NCBI GenBank assembly: GCA_947478845.1
Contig: CANJXC010000007.1
Span: 49,939-113,938, forward strand
Direction: 5' to 3'
Length of the DNA stretch: 64,000 nucleotides
Source: Spirochaetales bacterium
GTDB taxonomy: Bacteria > Spirochaetota > Spirochaetia > JABEVK01
A program made the position numbers and the translations under genes. Of this stretch, positions 30,199-46,748 are shown one piece after another (within the stretch, counting starts at the first letter, position 1; every line of letters begins with the position of its first letter). The notes beneath the pieces were generated by a model. That model was not told the origin of the DNA, searched no databases, and saw only the letters and a list, made by a program, of their open reading frames with translations.

Positions 30199-30214
30199 TT
30201 GATGGTCCTTGGTT

Positions 30215-30260
30215 CTGGAACTTCAGGTTCCAGTTGTTAGTTCGCTGATCAACGATCAGC
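30215..30260 (-). promoter_or_regulatory. Two tandem perfect hairpins in the 5' leader of the RRM gene
   Basis: CTGGAAC-ttcag-GTTCCAG (30215-30233) and GCTGATC-aac-GATCAGC (30244-30260), 17-62 nt upstream of the start. The AAGGA Shine-Dalgarno follows directly. Four GATC sites lie within 45 bp. Confidence 0.35.
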
Positions 30261-30379
30261 CCTTTTCCGTGCTTTGGGCGATCAGATCAAGAAGCGAACT
30301 AACGTTTCCAGAAAACAGTGCCGTGCGGTGGGAAAAGATTCGATTAGTCCTTCCGGATGAATCATCTTTAGAAACAATA

Positions 30380-30395
30380 GGGGCAATGTTGCCCC
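30380..30395 (-). terminator. Putative terminator hairpin downstream of the MFS gene
   Basis: GGGGCAA-tg-TTGCCCC inverted repeat, followed on the minus strand by a U-rich stretch (UAUUGUUUCU). Confidence 0.3.
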
Positions 30396-30530
30396 ACGTC
30401 AAGAGCAAGATTCTGAATTCCCATAAGAATACCTCTATTTTCTGCTATTACGACAAAATAACTTGCGCTTTAATGGGGTAGTCGCCTCGAAATGGCGATG
30501 TCTGCCCCTTGGACCGGCCGAAGTCAACCC

Positions 30531-31916
30531 TTACGCTGGCTTGGAAGGACCGCGGGATAAAGAGGCTACGATACCTAGAGAACACAGAACTGCCGAAACA
30601 CCGAACCCCCAGTGCTGGGCCGCCAAAAACCCTTGCGCTGTAGAGGGTTCCACCTCAGCTTTTCCCAGAAACAACGACAACAATACGAGTGCCAGGGCCA
30701 TGGATACCATCTGCCCCAATACGCGCATCGTCGCAACCGTGGCCGAAGCCAGACCCAAATCGTGCTGTTCGACGGATCCCATGATGGAATTGGTGTTCGG
30801 CGAAGAAAAAAGAGCAAACCCGAGCCCCACCAGAAACAGCGCCACTAGGATAAACAGAATTGGTGTTTCTGTGTCCAAGAAGGCAAGCCCCGCCAAACCC
30901 AATGCGGTGACCCCCATGCCCACCGAAGTGAGCAACCGCGGGGATATTTTGTCGGACATTCGCCCCGTGAACAAAGAAAACAGGGACTGGGTGAGAAACT
31001 GCACCAGAAGTACCAGCCCAGCAACCGAGGGAGTCATTCCGCGAACGACCTCGAGGTATAAACTGAGAAAGAAGGCCACAGAAAACGTGGCTGAGTAGCT
31101 AATTGCAGCTGCCAAGTTGGAAAAAGCAAACTCACGGTTTCTGGTAAACAGGGTCACCGGGAGAATCGGGTGGGTCAATTTGGACTCAAAGACCAAGAAC
31201 CCTGACAGAAGGGCCAACCCGCCAACTAAAAGACCGACGCCAAGAGGTTGGGGTAGATCGGAAACACCGAGAAGCAGCAGGGCAAGACCGGCTGCATACA
31301 GCAGAGAGCCGGAAAGGTCAAAAGCTCCGTGGTTGCCCCTATCGTTGCCGCCAAGCCGAGTGATGATGAGCAGCACCACAGGAACGCTGAGGGCAGTATG
31401 GAGCCAAAACAAACTTCGCCAGCCCCAAGCCTGGGTAATTAGCCCTCCGAGGGCGGGACCGAGCGAAATACCCAAATAGATCAGTGCCACGTTGATGCCC
31501 AAAATACGGCCCCGTTCTTGGGGAGGAAAAGCAGCAACCAAAACAGCGGTGACCGTACCAGTGGCCATTGAGGAGCCGATTCCCGTGAGTGCGCGCGCCA
31601 CAATGAGCCACCCTACATCGGGGGCCAAGGAGGACCACAGGCTGCCCAGCAGCGTCACAATCATCCCCAACGAAAAAATCAGCTGGCGACCATAAAGATC
31701 TCCCAGCCGACCCAAGGGCATAATCAACGCTGCTGAAGTCAGCACAAAGGCAGTGACAACCCAGTTGAGAGTAATTCCAGCAAGGTGATATTCGCTACCA
31801 ATCAAAGGGAGTGCCACGTTCACCGACGAGGCGCTGAAACTCGAAAGAAACGCCGCTGCCGTGGTGATGAACAAAACCAGATTGGGGGAAGGTAGGGTTG
31901 TTGTGGTCATGAACAC
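30531..31916 (-). CDS. MFS transporter, DHA2 (14-TMS drug:H+ antiporter) family
   Basis: Motif A GRLGDLYGRQ. 461 aa with about 14 predicted transmembrane helices. Confidence 0.85.
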   Translation of the reverse strand: MFMTTTTLPSPNLVLFITTAAAFLSSFSASSVNVALPLIGSEYHLAGITLNWVVTAFVLTSAALIMPLGRLGDLYGRQLIFSLGMIVTLLGSLWSSLAPDVGWLIVARALTGIGSSMATGTVTAVLVAAFPPQERGRILGINVALIYLGISLGPALGGLITQAWGWRSLFWLHTALSVPVVLLIITRLGGNDRGNHGAFDLSGSLLYAAGLALLLLGVSDLPQPLGVGLLVGGLALLSGFLVFESKLTHPILPVTLFTRNREFAFSNLAAAISYSATFSVAFFLSLYLEVVRGMTPSVAGLVLLVQFLTQSLFSLFTGRMSDKISPRLLTSVGMGVTALGLAGLAFLDTETPILFILVALFLVGLGFALFSSPNTNSIMGSVEQHDLGLASATVATMRVLGQMVSMALALVLLSLFLGKAEVEPSTAQGFLAAQHWGFGVSAVLCSLGIVASLSRGPSKPA

Positions 31917-32225
31917 TCCTCGCCCTACCAGCTCATCGAAAGTTCGTACATGATGAACAGCGAACCGTTGGGAGTATAGGAGAACAAAAGCGTTGGGAAC
32001 AGAGGGACTCCCTCCGTACCTTAACCGCGCCCGTCAGTGTGTCCACAGTGGCCTTCGCAGAGGTCTTTTGCAACCACTTCGAGAACAACCCTCCGCCCTC
32101 TTACCAGCCTTTGGCGGAAGGCCAATCTTGGTAGTCGGCGTTGGCCAAACCTACAAGGGTTTCGGCCACAGACCGAAAGCCACGAAGTGTATGCGTAATT
32201 CTCTCACAGGTGCACCTCAAGTGCG

Positions 32226-33431
32226 CTACTTCCCGGCAGGAACCAGCTTGAGCACACGGCCGCGCGGGTTGTCGGTGAGCAGGTAAATCGCGCCCTCTGG
32301 CCCCACCTCCACCTCGCGCACGCGCTCGCCGAGTTCGGTTAATAGGCGCTCTTCGCCCACGACTCTCCCCTCTTGCACTACGAGCCGGTCAAGGTGCTCT
32401 CCTCGTAGCCCACCAACAAACAGATTTCCTTTCCAACTGGGGAATAGGTCGGCCTGGTACAAGGCCAAGCCCGAAGGCGCAATCACCGGATCCCAGTAGT
32501 ACACCGGTTGCTCCAGCCCTTCCTGCCGCGTTAGTCCCTTGCCAATCGGAAAGCCCGAATAGTCGATGCCGTAGGTGATCACGGGCCAACCGTAGTTTCG
32601 CCCTGCCACGGGCCGGTTCAGCTCGTCGCCGCCCCGGGCACCGTGCTCCACCTCCCAAAGCGTTCCCGTCGCGGCGTCGAACGTCAGGCCCTGGGGGTTG
32701 CGGTGGCCCAGCGACCAGATTTCGCCTCGGGCACCGGCTACCCCCACAAATGGATTATCGGGCGGGATCTGCCCGTCAACCGTAATTCTGATAAGCTTGC
32801 CCAAGTCGCTGCCTAAGTTCTGAGCCTCATCGCGCGACCCAAAACGGTCGCCCACGCTGACGATGAGCGTGCCGTCGCCCAAGAACGCCATCCGTGACCC
32901 GACGTTGGTTGTACCCACGCGTGACGGTTCGGCGCGGAAAATCACCCTCCCTTCGACCAACGCGGGGCCCGAGGTCTCATCGAAAGTTGCCCGATACACC
33001 GAAATGCCCGAACCAAACGCGCGGGCCTCGTGGTAGGTCAGGTAAACACGGTGGTTGGCGGCGAACTGCGGATCGAGGACGATGTCGAGCAACCCTGCCT
33101 GACCCGAGGCCAACACCTTGGGGACGCCCGGCAAAGGAACCGAGAGCGAGCCGTTTGAGTTAAGTACACGTAAACGCCCTGGTTTCTCGGTCACGAGCGC
33201 TCTGCCATCGGGAAGAAACGCTAAACCCCAAGGGGACTCGAGACCTGTGGCGACCGAAACCACCTTGTAGCGTTCGGTGGAAGGTGCGGCGTTGACGCGG
33301 GTCTGGCCAGGAAATGCGGGGGCTTGGCCTCTGGCTTCAGGCGGGTAAGTTTCTACCGGCCCGGGTTCGGCCGCGAGTGCCAGCGCGACAAACCACGCAA
33401 CCACGGCCCAAGTGTTTCGAATCGTCACCAT
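32226..33431 (-). CDS. PQQ-dependent soluble sugar dehydrogenase (glucose/sorbosone dehydrogenase family)
   Basis: Signal peptide. Six-bladed beta-propeller GSDH-family motifs (LESPWGLAFLPDGRALVTEKPGRL). Confidence 0.8.
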   Translation of the reverse strand: MVTIRNTWAVVAWFVALALAAEPGPVETYPPEARGQAPAFPGQTRVNAAPSTERYKVVSVATGLESPWGLAFLPDGRALVTEKPGRLRVLNSNGSLSVPLPGVPKVLASGQAGLLDIVLDPQFAANHRVYLTYHEARAFGSGISVYRATFDETSGPALVEGRVIFRAEPSRVGTTNVGSRMAFLGDGTLIVSVGDRFGSRDEAQNLGSDLGKLIRITVDGQIPPDNPFVGVAGARGEIWSLGHRNPQGLTFDAATGTLWEVEHGARGGDELNRPVAGRNYGWPVITYGIDYSGFPIGKGLTRQEGLEQPVYYWDPVIAPSGLALYQADLFPSWKGNLFVGGLRGEHLDRLVVQEGRVVGEERLLTELGERVREVEVGPEGAIYLLTDNPRGRVLKLVPAGK

Positions 33432-33464
33432 CGTTTTCCTCCGCTTGCTCCCAAAGTTGTTTCC

Positions 33465-34640
33465 TCAGTGACAATTCTCGATCACTCGCACGAGCAGAAC
33501 GCCCTCTATGGCTGCCAACTCCTGTTTGAGGTGGGTGGCAATTTCGCCCGATACGTCGATGATGTTGTAAGCCACTTCGCCCTTGTTCTTATTGAGCATG
33601 TCGTCGATGTTCAACTTGTGCTTGGCCAGTATGGTGGTCACCTGGCCGATCATGTTGGGCACGTTTTTGTTGGCGATAGTGAGGCGGGTTTTACCCGTGG
33701 GGGCCATCTCGGCGGCGGGAAAGTTCACACTGTTTCTGATGTTGCCACGCTCGAGGAACTCACGGAGTTGGTCGGCAGCCATGATGGCGCAGTTGTCCTC
33801 GGCTTCGGGGGTACTGGCGCCGAGGTGGGGAATGGCCAGAATGTTGTCTATCCCCAACAGGTCGTCTTCCGGGAAGTCAGTGACGTAACCACCGAGCCGA
33901 CCCGAGGCCAGTTCGGCCTTGAGCGCGGTGTTGTCCACTAAGCCCGAGCGGCTGAGGTTGATGATGCGGGCGCCCTTTTTGGTGCGGGCCAGACATTCCT
34001 TGCTGAAAAGCCCCTTGGTTTCGGGAGTTAGAGGCACGTGGATGGTGATGAAATCGCTTTCCGCCACCAGGGCATCGAGGTTGGTGGCCTTGCGCACGGC
34101 GGTGTTCATCTTCCAGGCTGCCTCGACGCTGATGTAGGGGTCAAAACCGATCACCTTTACGCCAAGTGAGTTGGCAGCGTTGGCGATCATGACGCCGATG
34201 GCGCCCAACCCAATGACACCCAGCGTTTTGCCTTCGATTTCAGGACCAACGAACTGTGCCTTACCTTTTTCGACTAACTCGGGCACCTCATCACCTTTGC
34301 CCTTGAGGCTCTGGCTCCAGCCCAGGCCCTGTACGATGCGGCGACTCGAGAGCAGCATGGCGGCGATGACAAGTTCCTTGACGGCATTGGCGTTGGCGCC
34401 CGGGGTGTTAAACACCACGATGCCCTTTTCGGTGGCGGCCGGAATTGGAATGTTGTTGGTACCGGCACCTGCGCGCGCTATGGCCAGCAGGGTGGTGGGC
34501 AGTTCGAAGGTATGCATGTCTTGGCTGCGGACAAGGATACCGTCGGGATGCCCAAGCTCGCTGGCGGTTTCGTAGGATTCGCGGGGCAGGCGCTCGAGTC
34601 CGCAGGCGGCGATTTTGTTCAATGTCTGGATTTTAAACAT
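33465..34640 (-). CDS. serA: D-3-phosphoglycerate dehydrogenase
   Basis: 2-hydroxyacid dehydrogenase fold with GLGAIG NAD motif and a C-terminal ACT-like region. Confidence 0.85.
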   Translation of the reverse strand: MFKIQTLNKIAACGLERLPRESYETASELGHPDGILVRSQDMHTFELPTTLLAIARAGAGTNNIPIPAATEKGIVVFNTPGANANAVKELVIAAMLLSSRRIVQGLGWSQSLKGKGDEVPELVEKGKAQFVGPEIEGKTLGVIGLGAIGVMIANAANSLGVKVIGFDPYISVEAAWKMNTAVRKATNLDALVAESDFITIHVPLTPETKGLFSKECLARTKKGARIINLSRSGLVDNTALKAELASGRLGGYVTDFPEDDLLGIDNILAIPHLGASTPEAEDNCAIMAADQLREFLERGNIRNSVNFPAAEMAPTGKTRLTIANKNVPNMIGQVTTILAKHKLNIDDMLNKNKGEVAYNIIDVSGEIATHLKQELAAIEGVLLVRVIENCH

Positions 34641-34653
34641 GGGTGCATTCTCC

Positions 34654-35745
34654 TCAGTTGTTTTTCGTTTCGAACTCTTTCAGGAAGGCCACGAGTTTTT
34701 CCACACCGGCAATAGGCATGGCGTTGTAGATGCTGGCGCGCATACCACCCACAGAGCGGTGACCGGCCAGATTAACCAAGCCTGTGGCTTCGGCTTCCTT
34801 GACGAACTTCTTGTTCACGGCCTCAGCCACCTCGGGGTCGGCCACGCGGGTCAGGAAAGGCACGTTCATTAGCGAGCGGTCGGCACTTTCCACGGGGCTG
34901 CAAAAGAACTTCGACTGGTCGAGATATCCATAAAGTAACTCGGCCTTCTTCTGGTTCGCTGCAAACAGGGCCTTGGTTCCGCCGGTCTCTTGAATCCACT
35001 CCAGAACCAGCTTGACGATGTAAATCGCGTAGCAGGGTGGAGTGTTGAACATCGAGCCGTTGTCGACGTGCGTCTGGAAACTCAGCATGGCTGGCAAGTT
35101 TGCGGGAATGCGGGGCATCAGGTCTTTCTTAATGATGACAAGCGTAACGCCGGCAGGGCCAAGGTTTTTTTGCGCGCCGGCATACACCAAGGCGAACTTA
35201 CTGATATCGAGTGGCTCGCTCAAAATACCCGAGGAGATGTCGGCGATGAGCGGAACCTTCGTGTCGGGGATTTTGTGGTATTGAGTGCCCTCAATAGTAT
35301 TGTTATACGTGATATGCAGATAGTCAGCTTCCGGGTCGGCGCCAGTGATGACGGGCAAATAGCTCCACTTCTTGTCCTTCGATGAACCGACAGTATTCGC
35401 TTTGCCCAGTCTGGTCGCCTCTTCGATGGCCTTGATGGCCCAAGCCCCTGTGAGCGTGAAGTCGGCTTTCTTGTTCACGGTCATGAAGTTGAGGGGAATC
35501 ATGTGGAACATGAGGCTCGCGCCACCTTGCAAAAACAAGACATGGTAATCTTCGGGTACGTTCATCACTTCGCGCACCAAGCGCTCGGCACCGGCGATAA
35601 TGCTCTCGTAAGCCTTCGAGCGGTGGCTCATTTCCATCACCGACTGGCCCGTGCCGTCCCAGTCGAGCATTTCGGCAGCGGCCTTGGCTAAGACTGATTC
35701 GGGCAACATGGACGGCCCGGCAGAAAAATTATGCACTCGCTTCAT
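34654..35745 (-). CDS. serC: Phosphoserine aminotransferase
   Basis: Canonical SerC N-terminus (HNFSAGPSMLPESVL). PLP-fold class V. RBS GGAGGGAG. Confidence 0.9.
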   Translation of the reverse strand: MKRVHNFSAGPSMLPESVLAKAAAEMLDWDGTGQSVMEMSHRSKAYESIIAGAERLVREVMNVPEDYHVLFLQGGASLMFHMIPLNFMTVNKKADFTLTGAWAIKAIEEATRLGKANTVGSSKDKKWSYLPVITGADPEADYLHITYNNTIEGTQYHKIPDTKVPLIADISSGILSEPLDISKFALVYAGAQKNLGPAGVTLVIIKKDLMPRIPANLPAMLSFQTHVDNGSMFNTPPCYAIYIVKLVLEWIQETGGTKALFAANQKKAELLYGYLDQSKFFCSPVESADRSLMNVPFLTRVADPEVAEAVNKKFVKEAEATGLVNLAGHRSVGGMRASIYNAMPIAGVEKLVAFLKEFETKNN

Positions 35746-35818
35746 CAGGAAACTCCCTCCGGAAGGTTAACCCCGGTGAACTGAAGATAAACAACCGGTG
35801 GAAGTGTGTCGAGTTTAC

Positions 35819-35836
35819 CTGTGAATAAATTCACAA
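35819..35836. promoter_or_regulatory. Near-consensus Rex operator upstream of serC-serA
   Basis: CTGTGAA-TAAA-TTCACAA matches 17/18 positions of the Rex box TTGTGAAnnnnTTCACAA. It lies 74-91 nt upstream of the serC start and is adjacent to a putative -35/-10 (TCGACA-17-TATCTT on the minus strand). Confidence 0.5.
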
Positions 35837-35854
35837 CTTGCCGATTTCGGCAAG
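35837..35854 (-). terminator. Short hairpin downstream of the EVE gene (possible terminator)
   Basis: CTTGCCGA-tt-TCGGCAAG inverted repeat, followed on the minus strand by an A/U-rich stretch. Confidence 0.3.
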
Positions 35855-35864
35855 TTGCTCAAGG

Positions 35865-36335
35865 TCAGGAAGCCGAAGCTGGCCGTAAAGAGTTCACAAA
35901 GGACCATTCCTCGGGAGCTACTGGTGTAATCGAGAGGCGGTTACCCCGCTGGAGCACCACCATAGAAGCCAGTTCCGGGAAGGACCGAAGTTCCGACAAA
36001 GGAATCAATTCCCATTTGCGTTGGAGTGTGACGTCCACTTGGAACCAACGCGGCGCCTCCCGCGTTGCCTTGGGGTCGAAATAGTCACTTTCGGGGTCGA
36101 ACTGTGTGGGGTCGGGATAGCTTTCGCGGCTCACGCGCACGATGCCTGCGATGCCCGGCAGAGGACAACTGGAATGGTAATAAAACACCAAGTCTCCGAC
36201 GCGCATCTGGTCGCGCATGTAGTTGCGAGCCAGATAATTGCGTACACCATACCAACCTACGGTCTGGCCCGAGTAACTCTCGAGGTCGTCTACAGAGGTA
36301 ATAGAGGGTTCAATTTTCATCAGCCAAGTGTTCAT
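35865..36335 (-). CDS. EVE (PUA-like) domain protein
   Basis: MNTWLMKIEP...VGDLVFYYHS: typical EVE-domain N-terminus and core. Confidence 0.75.
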   Translation of the reverse strand: MNTWLMKIEPSITSVDDLESYSGQTVGWYGVRNYLARNYMRDQMRVGDLVFYYHSSCPLPGIAGIVRVSRESYPDPTQFDPESDYFDPKATREAPRWFQVDVTLQRKWELIPLSELRSFPELASMVVLQRGNRLSITPVAPEEWSFVNSLRPASAS

Positions 36336-37114
36336 TCCGCCAAGAGTTTCTGAATCAAGGCTTCGTCCTCGACGACGGTGTCAGACGCCCGGATAATGCC
36401 TTTTTTGTCGATGAGAAAACCGTGGGGAATCCCGGTGACTCCGTAATCTTCGATCTGCACTGTACCCCAGTCTTTTCCTTGCGGGCCATTCTGAGCCACC
36501 AGACTAGGAAAAGTCAGCTTCAACGAGGCTGCATTCTGTAGAGCTTTGGCTGCATCACCTTCGATGTTGATCCCCAAAACCTGCAAGCCTTTGCCTTTGA
36601 ATCGTTTGTAAAGAGCTTCGGTACCGGGCAGGGCGTTCTGGCAGGGTCCACACCAACTGGCCCAAAAATCAAGGAAGACAACCTTGCCCTTCAACGACGA
36701 AAGTTTCACCTTGGTTTTACCATCTAAACTGGGTAGCTCAAAATCGGGTGCAGGGTCGCCAACCACAGGGTTCCAGCTCATCGTTCCTTTTACCGGATCA
36801 CTTTTGACAAGGCGGCCGTCAGGGAAGCTGAACTGGTATTGATTGACGGCATACCGGTAGACTTCCGTGCCGTCGGACAAACCGAGGCCTTGCCAGCCAC
36901 TTTCTTTGTTTTCATAAACCGCATTTCCGTCGGCGCCGAGGTACTCGATCCAACCGTTGGCGTAGTCCTTAACCAACTTCAAGCCCGCTGAAGGGAAGGT
37001 TTTGCCGTTGTATTGTTTGACAATTGCCAACTGCGAGGCGGACGGTTCGGCAAAAACAGGAACTCCCAGTGAAATCAAAACTGCCATTAGTAAAGCAATC
37101 ATCCAGTGGTGCAT
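36332..37114 (-). CDS. TlpA-like thiol:disulfide oxidoreductase (thioredoxin fold) with an N-terminal secreted domain
   Basis: WCGPC active site (FWASWCGPCQ). Signal peptide. Confidence 0.75.
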   Translation of the reverse strand: MHHWMIALLMAVLISLGVPVFAEPSASQLAIVKQYNGKTFPSAGLKLVKDYANGWIEYLGADGNAVYENKESGWQGLGLSDGTEVYRYAVNQYQFSFPDGRLVKSDPVKGTMSWNPVVGDPAPDFELPSLDGKTKVKLSSLKGKVVFLDFWASWCGPCQNALPGTEALYKRFKGKGLQVLGINIEGDAAKALQNAASLKLTFPSLVAQNGPQGKDWGTVQIEDYGVTGIPHGFLIDKKGIIRASDTVVEDEALIQKLLAE

Positions 37115-37138
37115 AAACCCTCCGTAAGTACTGTGACA

Positions 37139-38032
37139 TTATACTCGAGAATCTGACTGGCGAAGTGGATTCTGTTTATAAAAGCGCATCAGAAGATCAA
37201 AGACGCCCGGGTACTGTTTTTTGAGCACCTGGGGAGTCTCAAAAAACACCTCGCTGCACACCGCAAAAAACTCTCCCGGGTCGGTGGCCGCATACGGGTC
37301 GATAGCCAACTGCGCCTCAGCCTTTCGCCCCAATCGTCGCGCCTGGCGTTCCAGGTCGGTAAAGGCCAAAGTGAACACGGTCTTCCATTGTTCAAAATCC
37401 ATGTCGGAATGCAAAGGCGGGCAACCGTCGACCCCTCCATTGCGGGCATCGAGCTTGTGCGCCATTTCATGGATCACCACGTTGTAGCCCTCACCCCAGC
37501 CTGAGTCTTCGATATCGCGCCAGCTCAGAATGACCGGACCAAGGGGCAAAATCTCTCCGCCGAGTTCCTCGTTGGTTTCGTGCACCAAATGGCCGTCTGG
37601 CGTGAGCATTTGCTCCTTAAACTCTTTTGGTACAAGGATCAAGGTGCTCCAGTCGTTATACCAGTCGATTCCCAGTTCAAGCACCGGGAGGCAGGCCTGC
37701 ACGGCAAGGCTGGCCTTTTGAAACTCGTCGAGGGACAGACCTCTTACCAGTTCAAACTGCTTTTCGGCAAGAAAAATTGTCGTGAGGTCGCGCAGGCGTG
37801 ATTTTTCACCGTAGGTGAGGCGAGCGAGAATCGGGTGTTGAACCAGAAGCTCGCTCCATAACTCCGCGTTCAGGGGTTTTGTAGCTAGGAGCTTGCGACG
37901 GCGGGCATTTCGGAAGTAGGACAGCGTTAAGGCACCCTCGGCAAGGTTTTCATAGTCCTGTGAAGACTCCTCGTTCTTCAAGCCACACCTGCCGCCGGTT
38001 GAGCCGGAGCACGGAAGACGCGTAATTGACAA
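37139..38032 (-). CDS. mtfA: MtfA-like zinc metallopeptidase (M90 family)
   Basis: HEMAHKLD zinc motif. Extended colinearity with E. coli MtfA (LPVLELGIDW, AATDPGEFFAVCSEVFFETP, YKQNPLRQ). The start is uncertain. Confidence 0.75.
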   Translation of the reverse strand: MSITRLPCSGSTGGRCGLKNEESSQDYENLAEGALTLSYFRNARRRKLLATKPLNAELWSELLVQHPILARLTYGEKSRLRDLTTIFLAEKQFELVRGLSLDEFQKASLAVQACLPVLELGIDWYNDWSTLILVPKEFKEQMLTPDGHLVHETNEELGGEILPLGPVILSWRDIEDSGWGEGYNVVIHEMAHKLDARNGGVDGCPPLHSDMDFEQWKTVFTLAFTDLERQARRLGRKAEAQLAIDPYAATDPGEFFAVCSEVFFETPQVLKKQYPGVFDLLMRFYKQNPLRQSDSRV

Positions 38033-38633
38033 TTCGTTTCACACCCCCTTGCACAAACCGCTCGGCGACTTTCTGCGCTTCCATTGCGGGAACCAACAGG
38101 ATGGCCGCTTCGAGTCCGAGCCTGAGGCTCACCCGTGTGATGTCAGTGGTGGGCCAAACAGGGAAGTTCACCTCCAGCTGTTCCAGGCGGTTGGCCCGCG
38201 AATCGAAGCCGGCCAGAAGTTGGTAGGGGCTGTCCGTACGAAGGATCAATTCGTCGGCAAGGGACAGTCCCCAGTCGCTCAGGCCGGCGACAGCGGTTCT
38301 GAGAGGTTGCCGGGGAGTGGGGTGTAAATAGGTTTCTATCCTCCGGGCCAGTTCTGCTGGTTGATAGGCTGATCCCCCCGTGGCGGCCTCGCCAGCCCTC
38401 ATAGGACACCAGGAAAGGTCTTTTCTCACGGTTGCGGCGGTGGTTCCCAGCCAGCGGGCCAGTTCATTGCTGGTCACCGTGTCGCGGTGGAGGGCCACCA
38501 AATCACCGAGCATCGCCTGCATGAGGCCTAAGCGTTCGATTGTCGCAGGTGACGGTTGTGGCTCGGTATTAAAACGCGGTGTAATGCAGACCCCACTTGT
38601 CGTAAAGATCCAGAACCTCTTTCTTCTTGCCAA
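37950..38633 (-). CDS. Rex-like redox-sensing repressor paralogue with a degenerate dinucleotide-binding motif
   Basis: Winged-helix region with VRKDLS. C-terminal LLVPAMEAQKVAERFVQGGVKRIVNYASSVL parallels Rex (LTVPREAAQ...GIKGILNFAP). The GxGxxG is replaced by AVAGLSDWG. It overlaps the MtfA gene; the start is uncertain. Confidence 0.5.
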   Translation of the reverse strand: MARRKRFWIFTTSGVCITPRFNTEPQPSPATIERLGLMQAMLGDLVALHRDTVTSNELARWLGTTAATVRKDLSWCPMRAGEAATGGSAYQPAELARRIETYLHPTPRQPLRTAVAGLSDWGLSLADELILRTDSPYQLLAGFDSRANRLEQLEVNFPVWPTTDITRVSLRLGLEAAILLVPAMEAQKVAERFVQGGVKRIVNYASSVLRLNRRQVWLEERGVFTGL

Positions 38634-40836
38634 TAAAAGTGACGCTGGCCTTCACGAAGTAGTCGATTTTCTGCGGCTCTGTTTGTGGAAGTTGGTCCTC
38701 CGGCAGTTCCCGGTACTGACGATAGAGCTTGGTGAGCCAGCTAGTCCCATATCGATCCATCATTTCTTGAAACAACCCGAGCTTAAAGAAAGGGTCCTCG
38801 ATTTCGGGTGAAGTGTTGTAATCTTTCTTCTGGGTAGGGCGCTTGAAATACTCCCGCCCAAGAGTCTTGATACCAGTGGCGACGAGTTTAGGGAAAACGA
38901 TGTTATCATCGACGGGAATGATCCAGGGATTCTTTTCTTTCCAGTGCTTAACCATGACTAGGCTGAAAATGTTCGTTGTAACTTCGCCGATTGCGTTCCA
39001 GGTCCACGATTGCTGGTAATTGTGCCCCATTTCATGCCAAAAGCCCCAAAGTTTCTGGGTTTTGGAGTTTGCAAGGTGGGAAAGTTGGTCGTCGTCATAG
39101 AAGTGAATCGGGTAACCCGAGTACATGTACGCTTGATAAGAGATCTCGATGTCTTTGAGGTAGCGCTCGGGGTTCCTCGGGGCTGTGTGTGGCAAGGCGG
39201 CAGTTGAGGAAAGACCCGCTAACTCCTTGTAAACGGAAAGGTTGTCGTCCCAAGTGGCCGTCAATACCTCCGGGTCGATCTTCGAAAGCGCTGAGACGGG
39301 TAAAGTGAAAATAACCTGATCGCTGGCAATTTCTCCCCACGGAGCTGCGCAGGAGGCCAACATGGCTTTCCATTCCTTGGCTGTCGTCTTGCCCCTTTGA
39401 AACCAAGGCGCTTGTACCGCGCCATTAAACGTCATTTCTCCCCGATAGCGAAAACTCCTTTTGTCGGGAATCAGATAAATCAGGCCGCCGAACGCACTGG
39501 TTACAGTGTTGACGCCAACATTCAGGGGAAAAATAACGACTAACATGGGGTCACGAGACCAAAGTAGGTTGGTCGACAACGTATCTGGATGGCTGCCTAT
39601 TTGAACTGAAAGACCCGCGAGTTCCAAGGGGACCGTGATTGTGACGGGCTGTCCGGAGGGAGCATACATTCCCGTGCTCTGCCAGTAGTCCCCGGTTTGG
39701 TTTTGGCGGAGGTAAGACAGATCTTCGGCTTGAAAATCGACAGCGAGCGGTGAACTCCCGGAGAATTGGGTCTTCCCTGGCAAAAGACTCCCTGGGAAGG
39801 CCGCCGAAGCTTGTACCAACTGGTTCGCGTCAGAGTGATCAGAAAGAAACAGCGAAAACTGGGCTGCCAGCTGCCCAGCAGTTGGAGTTATATCGAGTTC
39901 GGCTAGCGGGGTGAAGCTCGTCGCTGCTTTGCCAAACCCTTCGGCTAGCTTCCCCAGACCCGGTGGGTTTCTTGGCAGATCGCTAAGGACTGAGACGATG
40001 TTTTGTAGCGCCTTGGTTTGCAGAGCCAACAGGGCCTTCAGGTTTGCTGTGGCGTTAGGTGCCTTCAAGGCTTGGGCATACTGGAGCACCGGGTCCCAGT
40101 TTGGCTTCGGTGAGTTCCGGGTGTTGAGACCCTCTGGCCACTCTTCGCCCTCGTTTGAGAGACCCAAACCGAACTCGAAGAGGAGTTTCTGGACCCCTTT
40201 GCATTTCAGTCCTTTGGCCCCGCCGAAGATCCAACCTGGCATAGCTGCGAGGGCCCCTCCTCCCGCTCCCACATAGGCCTTGACCAGAGCCTGCTCTTCG
40301 TCGGTGGTATCTGCGGAAATCCAGGCGATGCGGCCACTTCCCTTCTTCAGGTCGGCCTCTTGAAACCTGCTTACATAAAACACCTCTACGGACAAGCCCT
40401 TGAGTTTCAACGTCATCTGACCTTTTTTTTCGGCCCCGTTTTGGACTAAAGTAACTTTCGAGAGTTGTTTCTTGTCTTCAAGGAAAGCCAACCACTGCAA
40501 GCTGTTGACCGCAAAAGTGTCGAGGTTTGACTGATCTATCTCTGCCATCCGACCCAGGTTGAAGAACGCATCGTGACCGGCAGCTAGAACGCGCCCTTTG
40601 CCAAAGAGGGAGGCCGAAACGCTTGGGCGGCCGTCTGGGCTTCCGAGCACCGCAAACGCTTCGGGCCCAAAGGTGTGCATGTAAGAAATATAGGCATCAC
40701 CGAAGCCTGACATATGGTCGATTCCCGCTACGAGCAGGCGCTGCACTCGGGTTGAATCATTCTCGGCGCTGAGGCTCGCCGCACCGATCACAAAGATCAA
40801 GCAGGATAGCAACATCCTCGATAAACTTCTTTCCAT
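38569..40836 (-). CDS. Secreted M60-like (enhancin-like) zinc metallopeptidase
   Basis: Signal peptide. HEMGHN...(13 aa)...E matches the M60-like HEXXHX(8-24)E signature (WGFWHEMGHNYQQSWTWNAIGE). 755 aa. Confidence 0.55.
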   Translation of the reverse strand: MERSLSRMLLSCLIFVIGAASLSAENDSTRVQRLLVAGIDHMSGFGDAYISYMHTFGPEAFAVLGSPDGRPSVSASLFGKGRVLAAGHDAFFNLGRMAEIDQSNLDTFAVNSLQWLAFLEDKKQLSKVTLVQNGAEKKGQMTLKLKGLSVEVFYVSRFQEADLKKGSGRIAWISADTTDEEQALVKAYVGAGGGALAAMPGWIFGGAKGLKCKGVQKLLFEFGLGLSNEGEEWPEGLNTRNSPKPNWDPVLQYAQALKAPNATANLKALLALQTKALQNIVSVLSDLPRNPPGLGKLAEGFGKAATSFTPLAELDITPTAGQLAAQFSLFLSDHSDANQLVQASAAFPGSLLPGKTQFSGSSPLAVDFQAEDLSYLRQNQTGDYWQSTGMYAPSGQPVTITVPLELAGLSVQIGSHPDTLSTNLLWSRDPMLVVIFPLNVGVNTVTSAFGGLIYLIPDKRSFRYRGEMTFNGAVQAPWFQRGKTTAKEWKAMLASCAAPWGEIASDQVIFTLPVSALSKIDPEVLTATWDDNLSVYKELAGLSSTAALPHTAPRNPERYLKDIEISYQAYMYSGYPIHFYDDDQLSHLANSKTQKLWGFWHEMGHNYQQSWTWNAIGEVTTNIFSLVMVKHWKEKNPWIIPVDDNIVFPKLVATGIKTLGREYFKRPTQKKDYNTSPEIEDPFFKLGLFQEMMDRYGTSWLTKLYRQYRELPEDQLPQTEPQKIDYFVKASVTFIGKKKEVLDLYDKWGLHYTAF

Positions 40837-40845
40837 TGGCTTCTC

Positions 40846-42180
40846 CTAGGTTTTCCAAATTGACTTAAGCGCTTCTTGAATGCGGCGGATCTTTCCGGGC
40901 TCTGGGACTACCACCTGATGAAAACCTAAGTCGTTGGCGGCTTTAACACGCCGGCGCAAATGGGTGGTGGGTCTCACTTCCCCGGCTAGGCTGAGTTCCC
41001 CGGCGCTTGCGACTCCAGAAGGCAAGGGTTGGCCGGTGCGCGCGGAGTACAGGGCCAAGGCTAGCGGGAGGTCGGCTCCCGGGTCGTTAATGCGCATGCC
41101 CCCGGCCACGTTCACGTATAAATCCTGCTCGCTGAACTTCAGTCCAGTATGTTTTTCCAGAATGGCCGCAATTCGGCTCACCCTGCCGGAGTCAATGCGG
41201 TCGCTGAAAACCCGGCTCATGCCGCCTTTGGCAGGAACCGTGAGCGCTTGCAACTCCACAAGAAGAGCCCGGCTACCCTCAAAGATAGGTGCCACCGAAA
41301 TTCCCGGTGGCAGTTCGCCTTCCCGTTGTATCAAAAAAATTGAGGCTGGGTTGGTCACTTCACTTAGGCCGTGTTCATCCATGGTGAAGAGCCCCACTTC
41401 GTCGACGCTACCAAAACGGTTTTTGGTGGCACGAAGAATGCGGATGTCGCCTGCCGCCTGCTCAAAATGAAGTACCGTGTCTACCATGTGTTCGATCACT
41501 TTGGGGCCGGCAATTTGCCCGCCCTTAGTCACATGCGCAATGAGGAAACTTGAGGTTTCATGTTCCTTGCACCAACTCAAAATTTCGTGGCAACCGTACT
41601 TGAGTTGGTTGACGGTACCAGGAACCTCCCCGGCATCGGGGTTGTAGAGGGTCTGAATGCTGTCGACGATCACGAGCACAGGTTTGATTTTCTCGAGCAC
41701 ATTGCTGATGACGGGCACGTGGGTTTCGACAAGGATCTCAAGGCCCTGGCGAGAAATGCCCAGCCGGTCGGCCCGCATTTTGATCTGAGCGGCCGACTCC
41801 TCACCGGTGATGTAGAGAACCCGGCCCGCCGTTTTTACCTTGGCTGCAAGCTGAAGCAGGAGTGTGGACTTGCCAATTCCCGGTTCACCGCCGATGAGCA
41901 CTGAGGCACCCCGGATGATGCCGCCACCGAGCACTTGGTTCACTTCGCTCAGGCCTGCGTCGATACGGATATCGGCTTGCGCTTCGAGGGAAGCCAGCGG
42001 GATGCTATGCCCGCCCGAAGTCGCACGCGGGTCTCCAGGAAGTGGTGCCGACTTTGGGGTGTTGGCAACCGCCTCTTCGCTAAAGCTGTTCCAAGTTCCG
42101 CATTGAGGACATCGGCCCAACCACTTCGATTCCTCGTGCTGGCAGGCGTTGCAAAGGTAAACGGTCTTTCTCTTGGCCAT
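40846..42180 (-). CDS. radA: DNA repair protein RadA/Sms
   Basis: N-terminal C4 zinc finger (CNACQ...CPQC), Walker A GEPGIGKST, KNRFG motif and a Lon-like C-terminal domain. Confidence 0.9.
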   Translation of the reverse strand: MAKRKTVYLCNACQHEESKWLGRCPQCGTWNSFSEEAVANTPKSAPLPGDPRATSGGHSIPLASLEAQADIRIDAGLSEVNQVLGGGIIRGASVLIGGEPGIGKSTLLLQLAAKVKTAGRVLYITGEESAAQIKMRADRLGISRQGLEILVETHVPVISNVLEKIKPVLVIVDSIQTLYNPDAGEVPGTVNQLKYGCHEILSWCKEHETSSFLIAHVTKGGQIAGPKVIEHMVDTVLHFEQAAGDIRILRATKNRFGSVDEVGLFTMDEHGLSEVTNPASIFLIQREGELPPGISVAPIFEGSRALLVELQALTVPAKGGMSRVFSDRIDSGRVSRIAAILEKHTGLKFSEQDLYVNVAGGMRINDPGADLPLALALYSARTGQPLPSGVASAGELSLAGEVRPTTHLRRRVKAANDLGFHQVVVPEPGKIRRIQEALKSIWKT

Positions 42181-42232
42181 GGGTCAGTCCTTATCGAGTG
42201 TATCAAGACTCAAGTTACGACGTTTCCTCGCT

Positions 42233-44035
42233 TCAGGACAGAGCTTCGAGAGTTTCCCACCGAGCGTACGCGGCAAGAAGTTCAGCTTCTGCAGCGGCCA
42301 GACGCGCCGTGATTTCGGTGACCCCAGCCCCGGCTGCCTTGTAAAAGTCGGGCGCGGCCATGCGGTCGTGAAGCGCCGAAGTTTCGGCTTCCAAGGCCTC
42401 CAGGCGCGCGGGGAGGGCTTCAAGCTCTCTTTCTTCTTTAAAGGTCCGCTTCCGCGGTTTGTCTGCTATCGCCAGCCCACCAGTCCCGAGGCGAGCCTCA
42501 ACAGTTTTTAGGTCCTTCGAGGTCTGTCCCTCCTGCGCTTTTTTGCGAACTTGCCAGGCGGCCCACTCGGTAAACCCTCCCGGAGTTTCGTCGAGGGTTG
42601 TGTCGGGGTTGAAGCTCCAGGTACTGGTCACCACGTTGTCGAGAAACTCCCGGTCGTGACTCACAAGGAAGATGGTGCCGCGATAGTCCAAAAGAAGCTC
42701 TTCCAGCAGATCAAGGGTCTCCGCATCAAGGTCGTTGGTGGGTTCATCGAGCACCAGCACATTGCTCGGTCGGGTAAATAGCTTTGCCAAAAGCAGGCGA
42801 TTGCGCTCCCCACCTGAGAGGATGCTTGCGTTTGCCCTGGCGCGTTCGGGGCTGAAAAGGAAACGCTCAAGATAGCCGAGAATATGCTGGGACTTCCCGC
42901 CAACCTCCACTGTGTCGTAACCGCCACCGACGTTTTCCTGCACCGACTTGGTCAGGTCGAGCTGACTCCGCAATTGGTCGAAGTACAGCACCTGCAGGTT
43001 TGTGCCGCGGTGCAGGTGGCCGTGAGAGGGTTGAAGGTCGCCAAACAAAAGACGCAGCAGCGTGGTCTTACCGGTGCCGTTGCGCCCAATGATGCCAATT
43101 CGCTCCCGGCGCATCACCGTGCGGGTAAAGTCGCGCAGCACCTGACACCCCGGGTAAGTGAAACCCAAGTGCCGTGCCTCAAACACCAAATCGCCCGAGC
43201 GTTCCGCGTCTTGAAGGGCCATGCGAGCGGTACCGGTTTTGTGACGACGGTCGTCCATCTCTTGGCGCATTTTCTGCAGGGCTTTCACCCGACCCTCGTT
43301 GCGCTTGAGGCGGGCCTTGACTCCCCTGCGCACCCAGCGTTCTTCGGCAGCGAGTTTCTTCTCGAACTCCTCCCAACGGCGATCTTCAGCCTCGATCACG
43401 GCTTCGCGGCGTTCCAGAAAAGCATCCCAACCGCAGGCAAATGCGATCAGCCGGCCCCGGTCTACCTCGGCGACGCGGGTCGCCACGCGGCGAGCGAACT
43501 GGCGGTCATGGGTAACAAACACCACAGCACCGCGAAACACAACCAGAGCGTCCTCGAGCCAAGCGATGGTTTCGATGTCGAGGTGGTTGGTCGGCTCGTC
43601 TAGGAGCAGTAGATTTGGCTCGCAGGCCAGCGCGCCGGCTAGGGCCGCGCGGCGCTTGTTGCCGCCCGAAAGGCTTGTGAAGTCGCCCTCTGGGTCAACT
43701 CCGAGTTTGCTAAGGTACTGCCTTGCCTTGTGTTCCTGTTCCCAAGGCTCGTCCGAGGTGGGAAAGGCTTCGAGGGCGGCCTCGAGAGCAGACTTGCCGG
43801 GGGCTTCGGGGAGTTCCTGATCTAAGGCTGCAAGCCGAAGCCCCTGCTGCCGGCTAATTTCGCCCTTGTCGAGGGTTAGAAAACCCTGCATGAGGCGGAT
43901 CAATGTTGATTTTCCCGCCCCATTGCGGCCAACCAGACAAAGCCTGTCGCCGGCTTCGAGCTGAAGCGAGGCCCCGGCAAATAACGGGAGGCCCCCGATA
44001 GTGTAGTGAATGTCTTGTAGACCGATCAGTGCCAC
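42233..44035 (-). CDS. ABC-F family ATPase (Uup-like, with a C-terminal coiled coil)
   Basis: Two nucleotide-binding domains (GRNGAGKST; GRNGTGKTT), an inter-domain linker and a C-terminal helical extension. Confidence 0.85.
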   Translation of the reverse strand: MALIGLQDIHYTIGGLPLFAGASLQLEAGDRLCLVGRNGAGKSTLIRLMQGFLTLDKGEISRQQGLRLAALDQELPEAPGKSALEAALEAFPTSDEPWEQEHKARQYLSKLGVDPEGDFTSLSGGNKRRAALAGALACEPNLLLLDEPTNHLDIETIAWLEDALVVFRGAVVFVTHDRQFARRVATRVAEVDRGRLIAFACGWDAFLERREAVIEAEDRRWEEFEKKLAAEERWVRRGVKARLKRNEGRVKALQKMRQEMDDRRHKTGTARMALQDAERSGDLVFEARHLGFTYPGCQVLRDFTRTVMRRERIGIIGRNGTGKTTLLRLLFGDLQPSHGHLHRGTNLQVLYFDQLRSQLDLTKSVQENVGGGYDTVEVGGKSQHILGYLERFLFSPERARANASILSGGERNRLLLAKLFTRPSNVLVLDEPTNDLDAETLDLLEELLLDYRGTIFLVSHDREFLDNVVTSTWSFNPDTTLDETPGGFTEWAAWQVRKKAQEGQTSKDLKTVEARLGTGGLAIADKPRKRTFKEERELEALPARLEALEAETSALHDRMAAPDFYKAAGAGVTEITARLAAAEAELLAAYARWETLEALS

Positions 44036-44065
44036 AGAGCCCCCAGAATACTGGCCCTGAGTATA

Positions 44066-44599
44066 TCAGATCACCCAAACCTCGAAACGGTCGCCCTTGT
44101 CGTGGTCGAGGTACTCAAAAACCTTCCCGGTTTCGCCCGATTCCAAGCTGCGGAAAAGTGCTTCATAATCGATCTGTTGAATGGGGTGGACGATCATCGG
44201 GGGCTTGGACATAAGCAGAGGTTTGAGTGCGGTGAAAATTTTGAGAGGAATGGTGACCTGATAGCGCTCCATGCTGGTGTCGAGCACAAGTACTTTGAGC
44301 ACCACATTCTGCGGGCCTAGGCCCAAGCCATCCTTGACGGTTTGGCTGGCAAAACCGAACAGTTGTTCAAAGCCCTTGGTAAAGGTTTTGCCGGCCTCTT
44401 CAACCATACGAAGAAGGTCGGCACTGGGGTCGGCATGTTCCTCTTTGGGAAGATCGCGGGACCCTTCGTGATTTGACCCGTGGGGTCCTTCTTTCGGCGG
44501 ATTTTGCTGCAACTCCTGGATAAGGCGCTGACCTTGCTCGGCAGTCAGAAAGCCTTCCTGCACCATTTTGAGAATTTTGAGAGTGGGGTCAGAGTCCAT
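44066..44599 (-). CDS. Hypothetical protein with an N-terminal SHOCT/YvlB-like helical motif
   Basis: ILKMVQEGFLTAEQGQRLIQEL resembles the N-terminal motif of YvlB/LiaG-type proteins. Immediately downstream of rex, with a 2-nt gap. Confidence 0.4.
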   Translation of the reverse strand: MDSDPTLKILKMVQEGFLTAEQGQRLIQELQQNPPKEGPHGSNHEGSRDLPKEEHADPSADLLRMVEEAGKTFTKGFEQLFGFASQTVKDGLGLGPQNVVLKVLVLDTSMERYQVTIPLKIFTALKPLLMSKPPMIVHPIQQIDYEALFRSLESGETGKVFEYLDHDKGDRFEVWVI

Positions 44600-44601
44600 G
44601 A

Positions 44602-45237
44602 TTAAGCTCCGCTGAGGCCGTTGCGAATCACCTGAAAAAACAGATTTTCAATTTCGACCCCGATGTTGATGTTATGAATAATACAATTCGGGGTGGTTTT
44701 CAATTCGACCGGTGTAAAGTTCAAGATACCTCGGATGCCGGAGTCCTTGAGCAACTTGTGACTTTCGGTAGCGACCTCTTCGGGAACCGCCAGAATGGCC
44801 ACCTGGATGCTATTGGCGTTGCAGAAGGCCGCCAACTCCTCGATGGGGTAAACCTTGAGAGAAAGCGACTCGGGCAACCCGACTGGGCGGACGTCGAACC
44901 CAGCGGCAACCTCAAAGTCTCCCTGTAAAAACCCCTTATACTGAGCAATGGCCGTACCAATCTTGCCCATGCCCAAAATGATGATCTTTTGTTCATTGGT
45001 TTTGCCTAAAATCAGTCCCAGTTGCTCCGAAAGGTAGTCGATGTTGTAGCCACCGCGTTTGTTGCCACCAAGCACTAACAATGAAAAGTCCTTGCGAACT
45101 AGTGCCGGGGCTACTCCAATCGCATCGCCTAGGTTGTTCGAGAACACCTTTTCAAAACCGAGGCTTTTTAGCTGGGTGAGAATGCGCCTATACTTCAATA
45201 GACGAATGACTAGTTCTTTATTAAGGGTTCCACGCAT
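44602..45237 (-). CDS. rex: Redox-sensing transcriptional repressor Rex
   Basis: Winged-helix region with VRKDFS. Rossmann motif ILGMGKIGTA. C-terminal GIRGILNFTPV. 211 aa. Confidence 0.85.
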   Translation of the reverse strand: MRGTLNKELVIRLLKYRRILTQLKSLGFEKVFSNNLGDAIGVAPALVRKDFSLLVLGGNKRGGYNIDYLSEQLGLILGKTNEQKIIILGMGKIGTAIAQYKGFLQGDFEVAAGFDVRPVGLPESLSLKVYPIEELAAFCNANSIQVAILAVPEEVATESHKLLKDSGIRGILNFTPVELKTTPNCIIHNINIGVEIENLFFQVIRNGLSGA

Positions 45238-45241
45238 TTTA

Positions 45242-45259
45242 TTGTACTAAGTTTCACAA
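45242..45259. promoter_or_regulatory. Putative Rex autoregulatory operator within the rex leader
   Basis: TTGTACT-AAGT-TTCACAA has one perfect half-site and one 4/7 half-site. It overlaps the predicted transcription start region downstream of a minus-strand promoter (TTGCCA-17-TACATT at 45271-45299). Confidence 0.45.
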
Positions 45260-45306
45260 AAACTTCTCTTAATGTAGGCGAGTTTCTTGCGTTTGGCAAG
45301 CAGTAT

Positions 45307-46690: not shown

Positions 46691-46748
46691 CTGGACGATC
46701 GCCAAGCGAACTCCTATAATTCTCCTCAGACGCCATATTGGAGGAATT

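Follow-up and report, generated by a model that had tools for sequence, protein, structure and literature searches.

In a 64-kb stretch of DNA from a Spirochaetales bacterium (the window), a diverged paralogue of the redox regulator Rex, which we call RexL, is encoded directly upstream of an MtfA-type metallopeptidase. Our preferred reading, to which we assign a probability of about one half, is that RexL is a Rex paralogue linked to the serine-biosynthesis genes serC-serA and unable to run the canonical switch that responds to reduced nicotinamide adenine dinucleotide (NADH), while MtfA is its operon neighbour. Rex is usually regarded as a single global NADH/NAD+ sensor, and the first step of serine biosynthesis makes NADH. 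The original prediction, which had been made from the letters of the window alone, had instead paired RexL with MtfA as regulator and anti-regulator; the comparison of related genomes ties RexL more firmly to serC-serA and a predicted Rex-type operator than to MtfA. The two minus-strand open reading frames (ORFs) that had been described as Rex-like and MtfA (M90) lie exactly at 37950..38633 and 37139..38032, and both names are borne out by Pfam matches.

The genomic contexts that we have compared (L numbers below; protein relatives of RexL carry P numbers) come from metagenomic contigs with relatives of RexL or MtfA, which were annotated using the proteins of the window; a scan of the GTDB species genomes gave one locus.

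RexL is a second, diverged Rex under purifying selection

Rex's N-terminal domain (PF06971, Put_DNA-bind_N) matches residues 28-74 of RexL with an E-value of 2.4e-9 and a score of 37.6 bits (cutoff 27), and the Pfam CoA_binding domain matches weakly. All nine NCBIfam Rex models align to RexL and none of the nine reaches its cutoff: the best match, to NF003995, scores 90 bits against 126, and covers model positions 6-191 of 213; two relatives of RexL, P0004 and P0007, likewise stay under all NCBIfam Rex cutoffs. The canonical Rex of the window, which is 22-25% identical to RexL, scores 201 bits to NF003996, against a cutoff of 138, and has the GMGKIG loop, the Tyr and the full C-terminal tail. 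The two sets of scores confirm the earlier claim that the window contains a second, diverged Rex.

The AlphaFold2 (AF2) model of RexL, which was built on a 129-sequence alignment, has a predicted local distance difference test (pLDDT) score of 91.5 and a high-confidence Rossmann fold; when the model was compared with the PDB using Foldseek, the top 39 matches were all Rex proteins, with E-values down to 1e-14, template modelling (TM) scores of 0.7-0.8 and about 25% identity. A search of 5.8 billion proteins returned close homologues of RexL in eight clusters, at 62-97% identity, and an exhaustive profile search added a graded series (P0009-P0012) at 36-48% identity, after which the ordinary Rex proteins begin.

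The uncorrected ratio of non-synonymous to synonymous changes (pN/pS), measured against the 84%-identical relative L005, is 0.25 for RexL, the C-terminal domain of which is under strong purifying selection; for MtfA, the ratio is 0.15-0.24, also uncorrected. The genes of RexL and MtfA are both real and under purifying selection. That RexL is a pseudogene or a relic was considered and rejected, on its pN/pS of 0.25 and its invariant DNA-contact residues.

The DNA-reading residues are kept, while elements of the NADH switch are lost

The residues of RexL were mapped through a hidden Markov model (HMM) alignment to T. maritima (Tma) Rex and through the contact lists of PMC8836258. The DNA contacts are kept: R12, S33, the base-reading pair R48-K49, G61 and Y64 of Tma Rex correspond to R34, S55, R70-K71, G87 and Y90 of RexL; residues S55, R70, K71, G87 and Y90 are invariant across the 12-member alignment of the RexL family, and R34 is invariant in a separate 12-sequence alignment. 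The wing loop of RexL is 4-19 residues longer than in Rex.

The loss of NAD contacts, which an alignment with Rex structures had been expected to confirm, is found in part. Three positions of the Rossmann domain are changed, namely G91 (S119 in RexL), the pyrophosphate-contacting Asn N92 (D120) and Y100 (E128), while G89, G94, D115, V153-P154 and N175 are kept as G117, G122, D144, V181-P182 and N203. Across the 12-member alignment, residues G117, G122 and N203 do not vary, and D144 and V181-P182 are invariant in the eight closest relatives. The Asp at the end of strand β2 (GFD; D144, in G-F-D-S), the counterpart of which in Tma Rex (D115) binds the ribose of the adenosine, is present in 10 of the 12 aligned family members and in the canonical Rex of the window, and is a Glu (G-F-E) in P0009; V181-P182 is lost in P0009-P0012. 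The position of Tma K120 is occupied by a basic residue in the RexL of the window.

The original prediction had based its redox-blind RexL on the loss of the GxGxxG motif. In the window copy, the glycine loop indeed reads GLSDWG (within AVAGLSDWG, residues 114-122), but only the middle Gly is changed: at this position the window, P0001, P0002 and P0004 have a Ser, while P0003 and P0005-8 have the Gly; GLGDxG is retained in five of the nine close homologues, and GLGxxG in most of the remoter ones. The change from Gly to Ser is lineage-specific, and is weak evidence for NADH blindness. In many members of the family, the second Gly of the loop is followed by an acidic residue.

No RexL that we have examined (P0001-P0012, L025-31) has an aromatic residue at the position of the nicotinamide-stacking Tyr (Tma Y100, T. 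aquaticus (Taq) Y98), which in Tma Rex is contributed by the partner subunit (PMC8836258). The terminal helix α9 of Rex is domain-swapped, stabilises the dimer and transmits the NADH signal to the DNA-binding domain, its movement freeing the DNA (PMC8836258, PMC8063818); the N-terminus of α9 binds the flipped nicotinamide of NADH, and the NADH-specific contacts sit on this helix (PMC8836258). The alignments of RexL to Rex models and PDB chains end at about model position 191 of 213; N203 is followed by 24 residues in RexL, against 37-38 in the two canonical Rex proteins compared (window, L001) and 30-41 in the outgroup RexL proteins that were measured; and the AF2 model ends in a strand and a coil, seven residues past the last β-strand, with no α9. 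The C-terminal dimerisation region, which had been described as retained, is thus not kept: α9 is missing.

Because α9 is lost, rather than because of the change in the glycine loop, it is plausible from the alignments and the model that RexL cannot run the canonical NADH switch; the earlier claim that RexL no longer senses NADH keeps its plausibility on this ground and on the loss of the Tyr, and not through the motif on which it was originally built.

RexL is linked to serC-serA and to a predicted Rex-type operator

The orthologues of serC and serA carry the Pfam domains Aminotran_5 and 2-Hacid_dh, and wherever a lineage offers enough sequence, the pair is found linked to RexL: RexL is directly upstream of serC-serA in L012-15 and L024-31, and the window, L016, L004-6, L022, L033 and L034 carry RexL and serC-serA within a single block. 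RexL proteins of the outgroup, which have an α9-like tail and no MtfA, occur in L012-14/L024 and L015 (36-38% identity) and in L025-31 (33-36% identity); the RexL-clade proteins of L012 and L015 score higher to RexL (109-120 bits) than to canonical Rex (36-60 bits).

The window was searched for Rex boxes with the consensus TTGTGAA-N4-TTCACAA, allowing two mismatches or fewer, and the 64 kb contain a single match (0.13 are expected per shuffle), which sits within the 119-nucleotide (nt) gap between the gene of an EVE-domain protein and serC. A Rex box occurs at the equivalent place before serC in L016, L004-6, L034, L033 and L022; in L012, L015 and L025-31, one or two boxes with two mismatches or fewer stand ahead of each RexL-serC-serA operon. 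Before serC or rexL-serC, the box is conserved in at least 10 lineages. The Rex of C. bescii binds upstream of an operon that encodes a class V aminotransferase and a 3-phosphoglycerate dehydrogenase (PMC6391272).

In the relatives with a Rex box before serC, a promoter-like pair, TCGAC(A/G)...TAT(A/C)(C/T)T, follows the box after 5-7 nt; TCGAC(A/G) and a -10-like hexamer (TATCTT/TATACT), about 16-17 nt downstream of it, are conserved in L005, L033, L034 and L022. Upstream of the operator, the gaps between the genes are short (24 nt between MtfA and a TlpA-like redoxin, and a 4-nt overlap between the redoxin and the EVE gene), and a terminator-like hairpin is found only after the EVE gene; for these reasons, the genes appear to form two transcription units, RadA-M60-RexL-MtfA-redoxin-EVE and serC-serA.

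Two side observations concern the boxes. In two of the outgroup rexL-serC-serA operons, two Rex boxes lie 127 nt apart (L027, 2209..2226 and 2336..2353; L028, 5758..5775 and 5885..5902), the proximal box being only about 8-30 nt before the start codon of rexL. In the window, the hairpin and the serC box share 4 nt, so that termination and occupancy of the operator could interfere with each other.

The proposed role of RexL and the alternatives to it

We propose that RexL is a functional, fast-evolving Rex paralogue, of a subfamily whose deeper members would head a rexL-serC-serA operon controlled by Rex boxes; in the lineage of the window, RexL would have its place within the RadA-(M60)-RexL-MtfA-redoxin-EVE unit, with the operator staying directly before serC-serA. 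RexL probably still binds TGTGA-type half-sites, most likely those of the serC-serA operator, and would be incapable of the canonical, NADH-driven release of DNA; at the serine-biosynthesis genes, it may be a regulator that acts constitutively or is controlled in another way, or it may compete with canonical Rex. MtfA would be transcribed together with RexL and probably translated in a coupled manner, from a non-canonical ACG; it would have been acquired in one clade, and its link to RexL would lie at the level of the operon and of synteny.

Five points weigh against this proposal. The adjacency of RexL and MtfA, with overlapping stop and start codons and in seven lineages, exceeds what is expected of unrelated genes, and a role at serC-serA leaves it unexplained. 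In the clade where RexL is linked to RadA, the box is situated upstream of the predicted -35 element, with its centre near -50, a position that is uncommon for a repressor. The Asp at the end of β2, two of the three Gly residues, the VP motif and N203 are all kept, so that adenine-nucleotide binding is possible. In the absence of α9, the dimerisation of RexL, and hence its binding to a palindrome, may be weakened. Lastly, the canonical Rex that is encoded 6 kb away could be the only user of the serC box.

The last point leads to the strongest of the alternatives, which we consider rather unlikely: the serC-serA operator would be used by canonical Rex only, while RexL would have other targets, would be a dominant-negative or heterodimer partner of Rex, or would be a relic nearing loss. 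A canonical Rex with all of the switch elements is present in the neighbourhood of RexL in the window, L001 and L007, the box fits the generic Rex consensus, and the loss of a helix that stabilises the dimer could disable independent DNA binding (PMC8063818); this alternative is opposed by the purifying selection on RexL and the invariance of its DNA-reading residues, and by the RexL-clade members of L012 and L015, which head a box-controlled serCA operon and thus point to proteins of the RexL type as users of the box.

It is less likely still, in our estimate, that RexL remains a dinucleotide sensor, holding NAD(H) or another adenine nucleotide in its Rossmann pocket and signalling independently of α9. 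The high-confidence Rossmann fold of the AF2 model, the residues of the pocket that are invariant (G117, G122, N203) or mostly kept (D144, V181-P182), the basic residue at the position of Tma K120, the full GxGxxG motif of most family members and the selection on the C-terminal domain would all agree with such a sensor, but no RexL examined has an aromatic residue in place of the nicotinamide-stacking Tyr, many members have an acidic residue after the second Gly, the contacts specific to NADH belong to the missing α9 (PMC8836258), and the window copy has a Ser in place of the Gly that must approach the pyrophosphate. The third alternative, in which MtfA antagonises RexL, is weighed below, along with the evidence on MtfA.

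MtfA and its adjacency to RexL

MtfA of the window is predicted to be an intact, ordinary M90 zinc peptidase. The Peptidase_M90 domain (PF06167) matches it at full length, with 256.6 bits against a cutoff of 26.2 and over profile positions 2-243 of 243; the nearly full-length matches in the PDB are the proteins of K. pneumoniae (3dl1, E-value 7e-44) and E. coli (9srw, E-value 6e-42); and the EFFA sequence that contains the third zinc ligand aligns with E211xxA214 of E. coli MtfA. Its score to NF011939, the equivalog model of the E. coli DgsA(Mlc) anti-repressor, is 174 bits, below the cutoff of 400. The residues E177 and E189, the two Mlc contacts of E. coli MtfA that could be placed with certainty (PMC13482132), correspond, with reversed charge, to K182 and R194 in the MtfA of the window, in a helix that has turned basic. 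Several other Mlc contacts named in the molecular dynamics section of PMC13482132 (E6, D118, D121, E174, E210) do not coincide with acidic residues in the deposited numbering, and were not used.

RexL is followed directly by MtfA on the same strand in seven lineages (window/L016; L004-6/L017; L007/L020; L010; L023; L034; L037), among which the identity of RexL goes down to about 41%, and the two genes overlap by up to 16 nt or are up to about 70 nt apart. The pair is interrupted in two lineages, by one convergent gene of 603 amino acids (aa) in L022, and in the Spirochaetales metagenome-assembled genome (MAG) ELA137 by an 8.2-kb cassette for sugar utilisation, which lies on the opposite strand and beyond which the order is MtfA-redoxin-EVE-...-serC-serA. 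In two more, RexL and MtfA are not adjacent: convergent genes follow RexL in L011, and L036 has the order ROK-MFS-MtfA-TetR...EVE. MtfA is missing from all of the deeper (outgroup) RexL lineages, where RexL couples to serC-serA. A lack of conserved adjacency would have refuted the original prediction; the adjacency is conserved in seven lineages, so that the prediction is not refuted on this count, and it is broken or absent in the others.

The links between RadA and RexL and between MtfA and EVE are at least as conserved as that between RexL and MtfA. As judged from this gene order, the adjacency of RexL and MtfA is not specific evidence for a protein pair, because the whole block, RadA-RexL-MtfA-(redoxin)-EVE-...-serC-serA, is syntenic; furthermore, the lineages with RexL-MtfA form one clade, and therefore amount to one origin. 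Homologues of MtfA with E-values below 1e-30 number more than 3,500, against a handful of RexL.

The remaining alternative is that MtfA is a dedicated anti-regulator of RexL, which would bind the DNA-binding face of the RexL dimer and titrate it off the DNA, or cleave it, so that control by a partner would replace the NADH switch. In E. coli, an MtfA monomer wedges between the two helix-turn-helix (HTH) domains of the Mlc dimer, competing with the DNA, as was seen by cryogenic electron microscopy (cryo-EM) in 2026 (PMC13482132), and this structure makes an interaction of MtfA with an HTH regulator conceivable in principle. The same-strand adjacency in seven lineages, the overlapping stop and start codons in L034 and L037, a coupling-like mini-ORF in the window and the appearance of MtfA precisely in the clade whose RexL has lost α9 would also be in keeping with it. 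We nevertheless regard it as improbable: the pair is split in L022 and in the Spirochaetales MAG and absent in L011 and L036; the equally conserved MtfA-EVE and RadA-RexL links make it a matter of whole-block synteny; the homologues of MtfA far outnumber those of RexL; the Mlc-contacting Glu residues are replaced by Lys and Arg; the folds of Rex and ROK/Mlc are unrelated; and one clade with a single origin is essentially one evolutionary observation. A fuller version is, in our view, just as doubtful: in one spirochaete-related clade, the Rex paralogue would have given up its NADH switch (α9 and the Tyr) and come under a co-translated MtfA that wedges between or clips its HTH domains, with the relay from the ATGA through the mini-ORF to the ACG setting a fixed, low ratio of MtfA to RexL.

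As a separate observation, in L036 (2788..5777), where no RexL is adjacent, a 322-aa protein of the ROK family is encoded two genes upstream of MtfA, in the order ROK-MFS-MtfA-TetR. The layout recalls the pairing of MtfA with Mlc, a ROK protein, in E. coli; the ROK protein of L036 is short, and may be a kinase.

The start codons of RexL and MtfA

The first ATG in the RexL ORF is at 38522 (M38), and the gene callers start the gene at the equivalent of M38 on related contigs. The 11 codons that precede M38 (PSPATIERLGL) have seven synonymous and no non-synonymous changes compared with L005; translation of RexL therefore begins upstream of M38. A start at M38 was rejected, since it would also cut helix α1 (residues 29-47) and remove R34, which is near-invariant across Rex. 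The sole canonical start upstream of M38 is the TTG at 38633, conserved in L004-6, from which the 5' end of RexL overlaps the 3' end of an M60-like peptidase gene by 65 nt; because pN/pS in the RexL frame is 1.0 within the overlap, this stretch seems to act as an unconstrained leader.

The M60-like (enhancin-type) peptidase, of 755 aa, is found between RadA and RexL in the clade of the window only (also in L005 and L016). In the relatives that lack the insertion, RexL starts at a GTG or an ATG that overlaps the stop codon of RadA, and RadA-RexL with such a stop/start overlap is the commonest upstream link of RexL. The insertion of M60 removed this ancestral start, and RexL now seems to begin at the TTG located 65 nt inside the M60 gene.

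The longest ORF of MtfA (37139..38032, 297 aa) reaches up to the TTG at 38032 and overlaps RexL by 83 nt; this is the gene overlap that had been reported originally. Within this overlap, the MtfA frame has a pN/pS of 1.71 and the RexL frame one of 0.23. The orthologous MtfA proteins start at or after the stop codon of RexL: their N-termini are MFAFLRRARRKKLL in L007, where the ATG is 10 nt past the RexL stop, and VFAWLRKRRRERLV in L010, with a GTG, while in L034 and L037 the ATG of MtfA overlaps the stop of RexL (ATGA/TGATG-type). As these comparisons indicate, the 83-nt overlap is a product of taking the longest ORF, because the MtfA frame is unconstrained within it and the orthologues start at or after the RexL stop.

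The sequence of the window that is homologous to these N-termini is TLSYFRNARRRKLL, with an ACG (37927..37925) at the position of the ancestral Met. The ACG is present at this position in four independent assemblies (window, L005, L016, L017). In L005, there is no in-frame ATG, GTG or TTG from the upstream stop to the conserved N-terminus of MtfA, and the next one is the start of the gene caller, about 36 codons downstream of the ACG; the 36 codons that follow the ACG have a pN/pS of 0.24 against L005. The 224-aa MtfA of the gene callers was rejected, as it would drop 35 conserved residues. In the species of the window, a lineage-specific TTG at 37981, with a 32-nt overlap, may be the start of MtfA.

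Between the two genes lies a mini-ORF of eight codons (MKTLPRVP*), the ATG of which overlaps the stop of RexL (ATGA), and the stop of which overlaps the ACG by 1 nt. The same arrangement is found in L005 (MKVFLRVP*), L016 and L017, with TGA or TAA as the stop, and the mini-ORF may, we infer, be a relay for translational coupling. We rejected a fusion of RexL to MtfA, or of the mini-ORF into MtfA, by programmed frameshifting or readthrough: no slippery site or Shine-Dalgarno (SD) sequence is conserved between the window and L005, orthologues have an ATG or GTG of their own, and the overlap is unconstrained in the MtfA frame.

Comparison with known systems

In comparison with the Rex proteins of known structure (T. 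aquaticus 1XCB, T. maritima 5ZZ5-7 and 7WB3, RSP 3WG9), RexL has the same architecture of a winged HTH and a Rossmann domain, and shares with them the R-K pair, the Ser, the Gly-Tyr of the wing, the Asp at the end of β2 and the VP and N(F/Y) motifs, along with a Rex-type palindrome nearby; it differs in having no domain-swapped α9, in the replacements of Tyr100 by Glu and Asn92 by Asp, in the GxSxxG of the window copy and in its longer wing loop.

A Rex operator is likewise found in C. bescii before an operon of an aminotransferase and an NAD-dependent phosphoglycerate dehydrogenase (PMC6391272); in the Thermotogales, the serine-pathway gene that is controlled by Rex is that of a serine-pyruvate aminotransferase. 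A single, global Rex is the regulator in those organisms, whereas the window and at least 10 metagenomic lineages have a separate Rex-like gene that is linked to serC-serA. If our reading is true, a RexL without the switch would add a dedicated or redox-independent layer to the control of serine biosynthesis, across many uncultured lineages, and would be a natural experiment on the contribution of α9 to the dimerisation and the allostery of Rex.

In comparison with the MtfA-Mlc pair of E. coli (9SRW; K. pneumoniae 3DL1), the MtfA of the window is the same full-length M90 gluzincin, with the HExxH and the Glu in the stretches that align to the PDB structures, and it adjoins the gene of an HTH regulator of the dimeric type. 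The candidate partner has a Rex fold and not a ROK fold, MtfA scores under the equivalog cutoff, and E177 and E189 have become Lys and Arg. There is no match to ROK/Mlc among the proteins of the window that were scanned, the annotation of the window not being exhaustive. To our knowledge, the titration of Mlc is the only known function of MtfA. A true link to RexL would extend such titration to an unrelated family of regulators, and would make MtfA-type proteins general, protein-level antagonists of dimeric HTH regulators, and not an oddity specific to Mlc; at present, MtfA is a conserved operon neighbour only.

Features of the locus and its surroundings

The coordinates of the features are listed in Table 1. 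The apparent ACG start of MtfA, and the disappearance of both ancestral start codons after the M60 gene was inserted, are warnings for the annotation of these genomes.

Table 1. Coordinates of the features in the window, in ascending order of position.
Feature	Position	Strand	Remarks
serA	33465..34640	-	with serC, candidate target operon 33465..35745
serC	34654..35745	-	
Promoter-like site for serC-serA	35784..35812	-	TCGACA, 17 nt, TATCTT; begins 6 nt downstream of the operator
Rex-type operator (predicted)	35819..35836		+ strand CTGTGAATAAATTCACAA, gene strand TTGTGAATTTATTCACAG; one mismatch to the consensus
Terminator-like hairpin after the EVE gene	35833..35858	-	11 bp; the operator's first 4 nt lie within the 3' arm
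EVE-domain protein	35865..36335	-	downstream member of the RexL-MtfA transcription unit
TlpA-like redoxin	36332..37114	-	downstream member of the RexL-MtfA transcription unit
MtfA-type M90 zinc peptidase	37139..37927	-	262 codons, counted from ACG 37927..37925
HEMAH zinc-binding motif of MtfA	37457..37471	-	aligns with H148ExxH152 of E. coli MtfA
Mini-ORF	37927..37953	-	8 codons
RexL	37950..38633	-	227 codons, counted from TTG 38633; PF06971, AF2, Foldseek, pN/pS
Degenerate glycine loop of RexL	38268..38285	-	G117-L-S-D-W-G122
Winged HTH domain of RexL	38319..38552	-	residues 28-105, lengthened wing loop; AF2 helices H29-47, H55-62, H66-73
Overlap of the RexL 5' end and the M60 3' end	38569..38633	-	65 nt
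M60-like peptidase (inserted)	38569..40836	-	upstream of RexL
RadA	40846..42180	-	upstream of RexL
Canonical Rex	44602..45237	-	about 6 kb upstream of RexL, same strand
Imperfect Rex box of rex	45242..45259	-	

The imperfect box of the canonical rex gene (TTGTGAA-N4-AGTACAA) has three mismatches and is conserved as TTGTGAAC(A/G)GCAGTACAA at the 5' end of rex in L001 (2382..2399) and L007 (1124..1141); in the window and L001, the called start lies just downstream of the box, and in L007 the box falls just within the called ORF. The box is probably a site of autoregulation. A conserved protein of 177 aa with a faint SHOCT-like/DUF2089-C match (44066..44599 on the minus strand of the window; 3062..3592 in L001) is always encoded 2-25 nt after the canonical rex, and may be an operon partner of Rex.

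A scan of 30000..48000 with Rfam gave no match. A MazE/PemK toxin-antitoxin pair is situated between the gene of an ABC-F protein and RadA in three relatives (L001, 6118..6664; L007, 6084..6666; L008, 3080..3626); in the window, there is no MazE/PemK between ABC-F (42233..44035) and RadA, and RadA comes directly after ABC-F.

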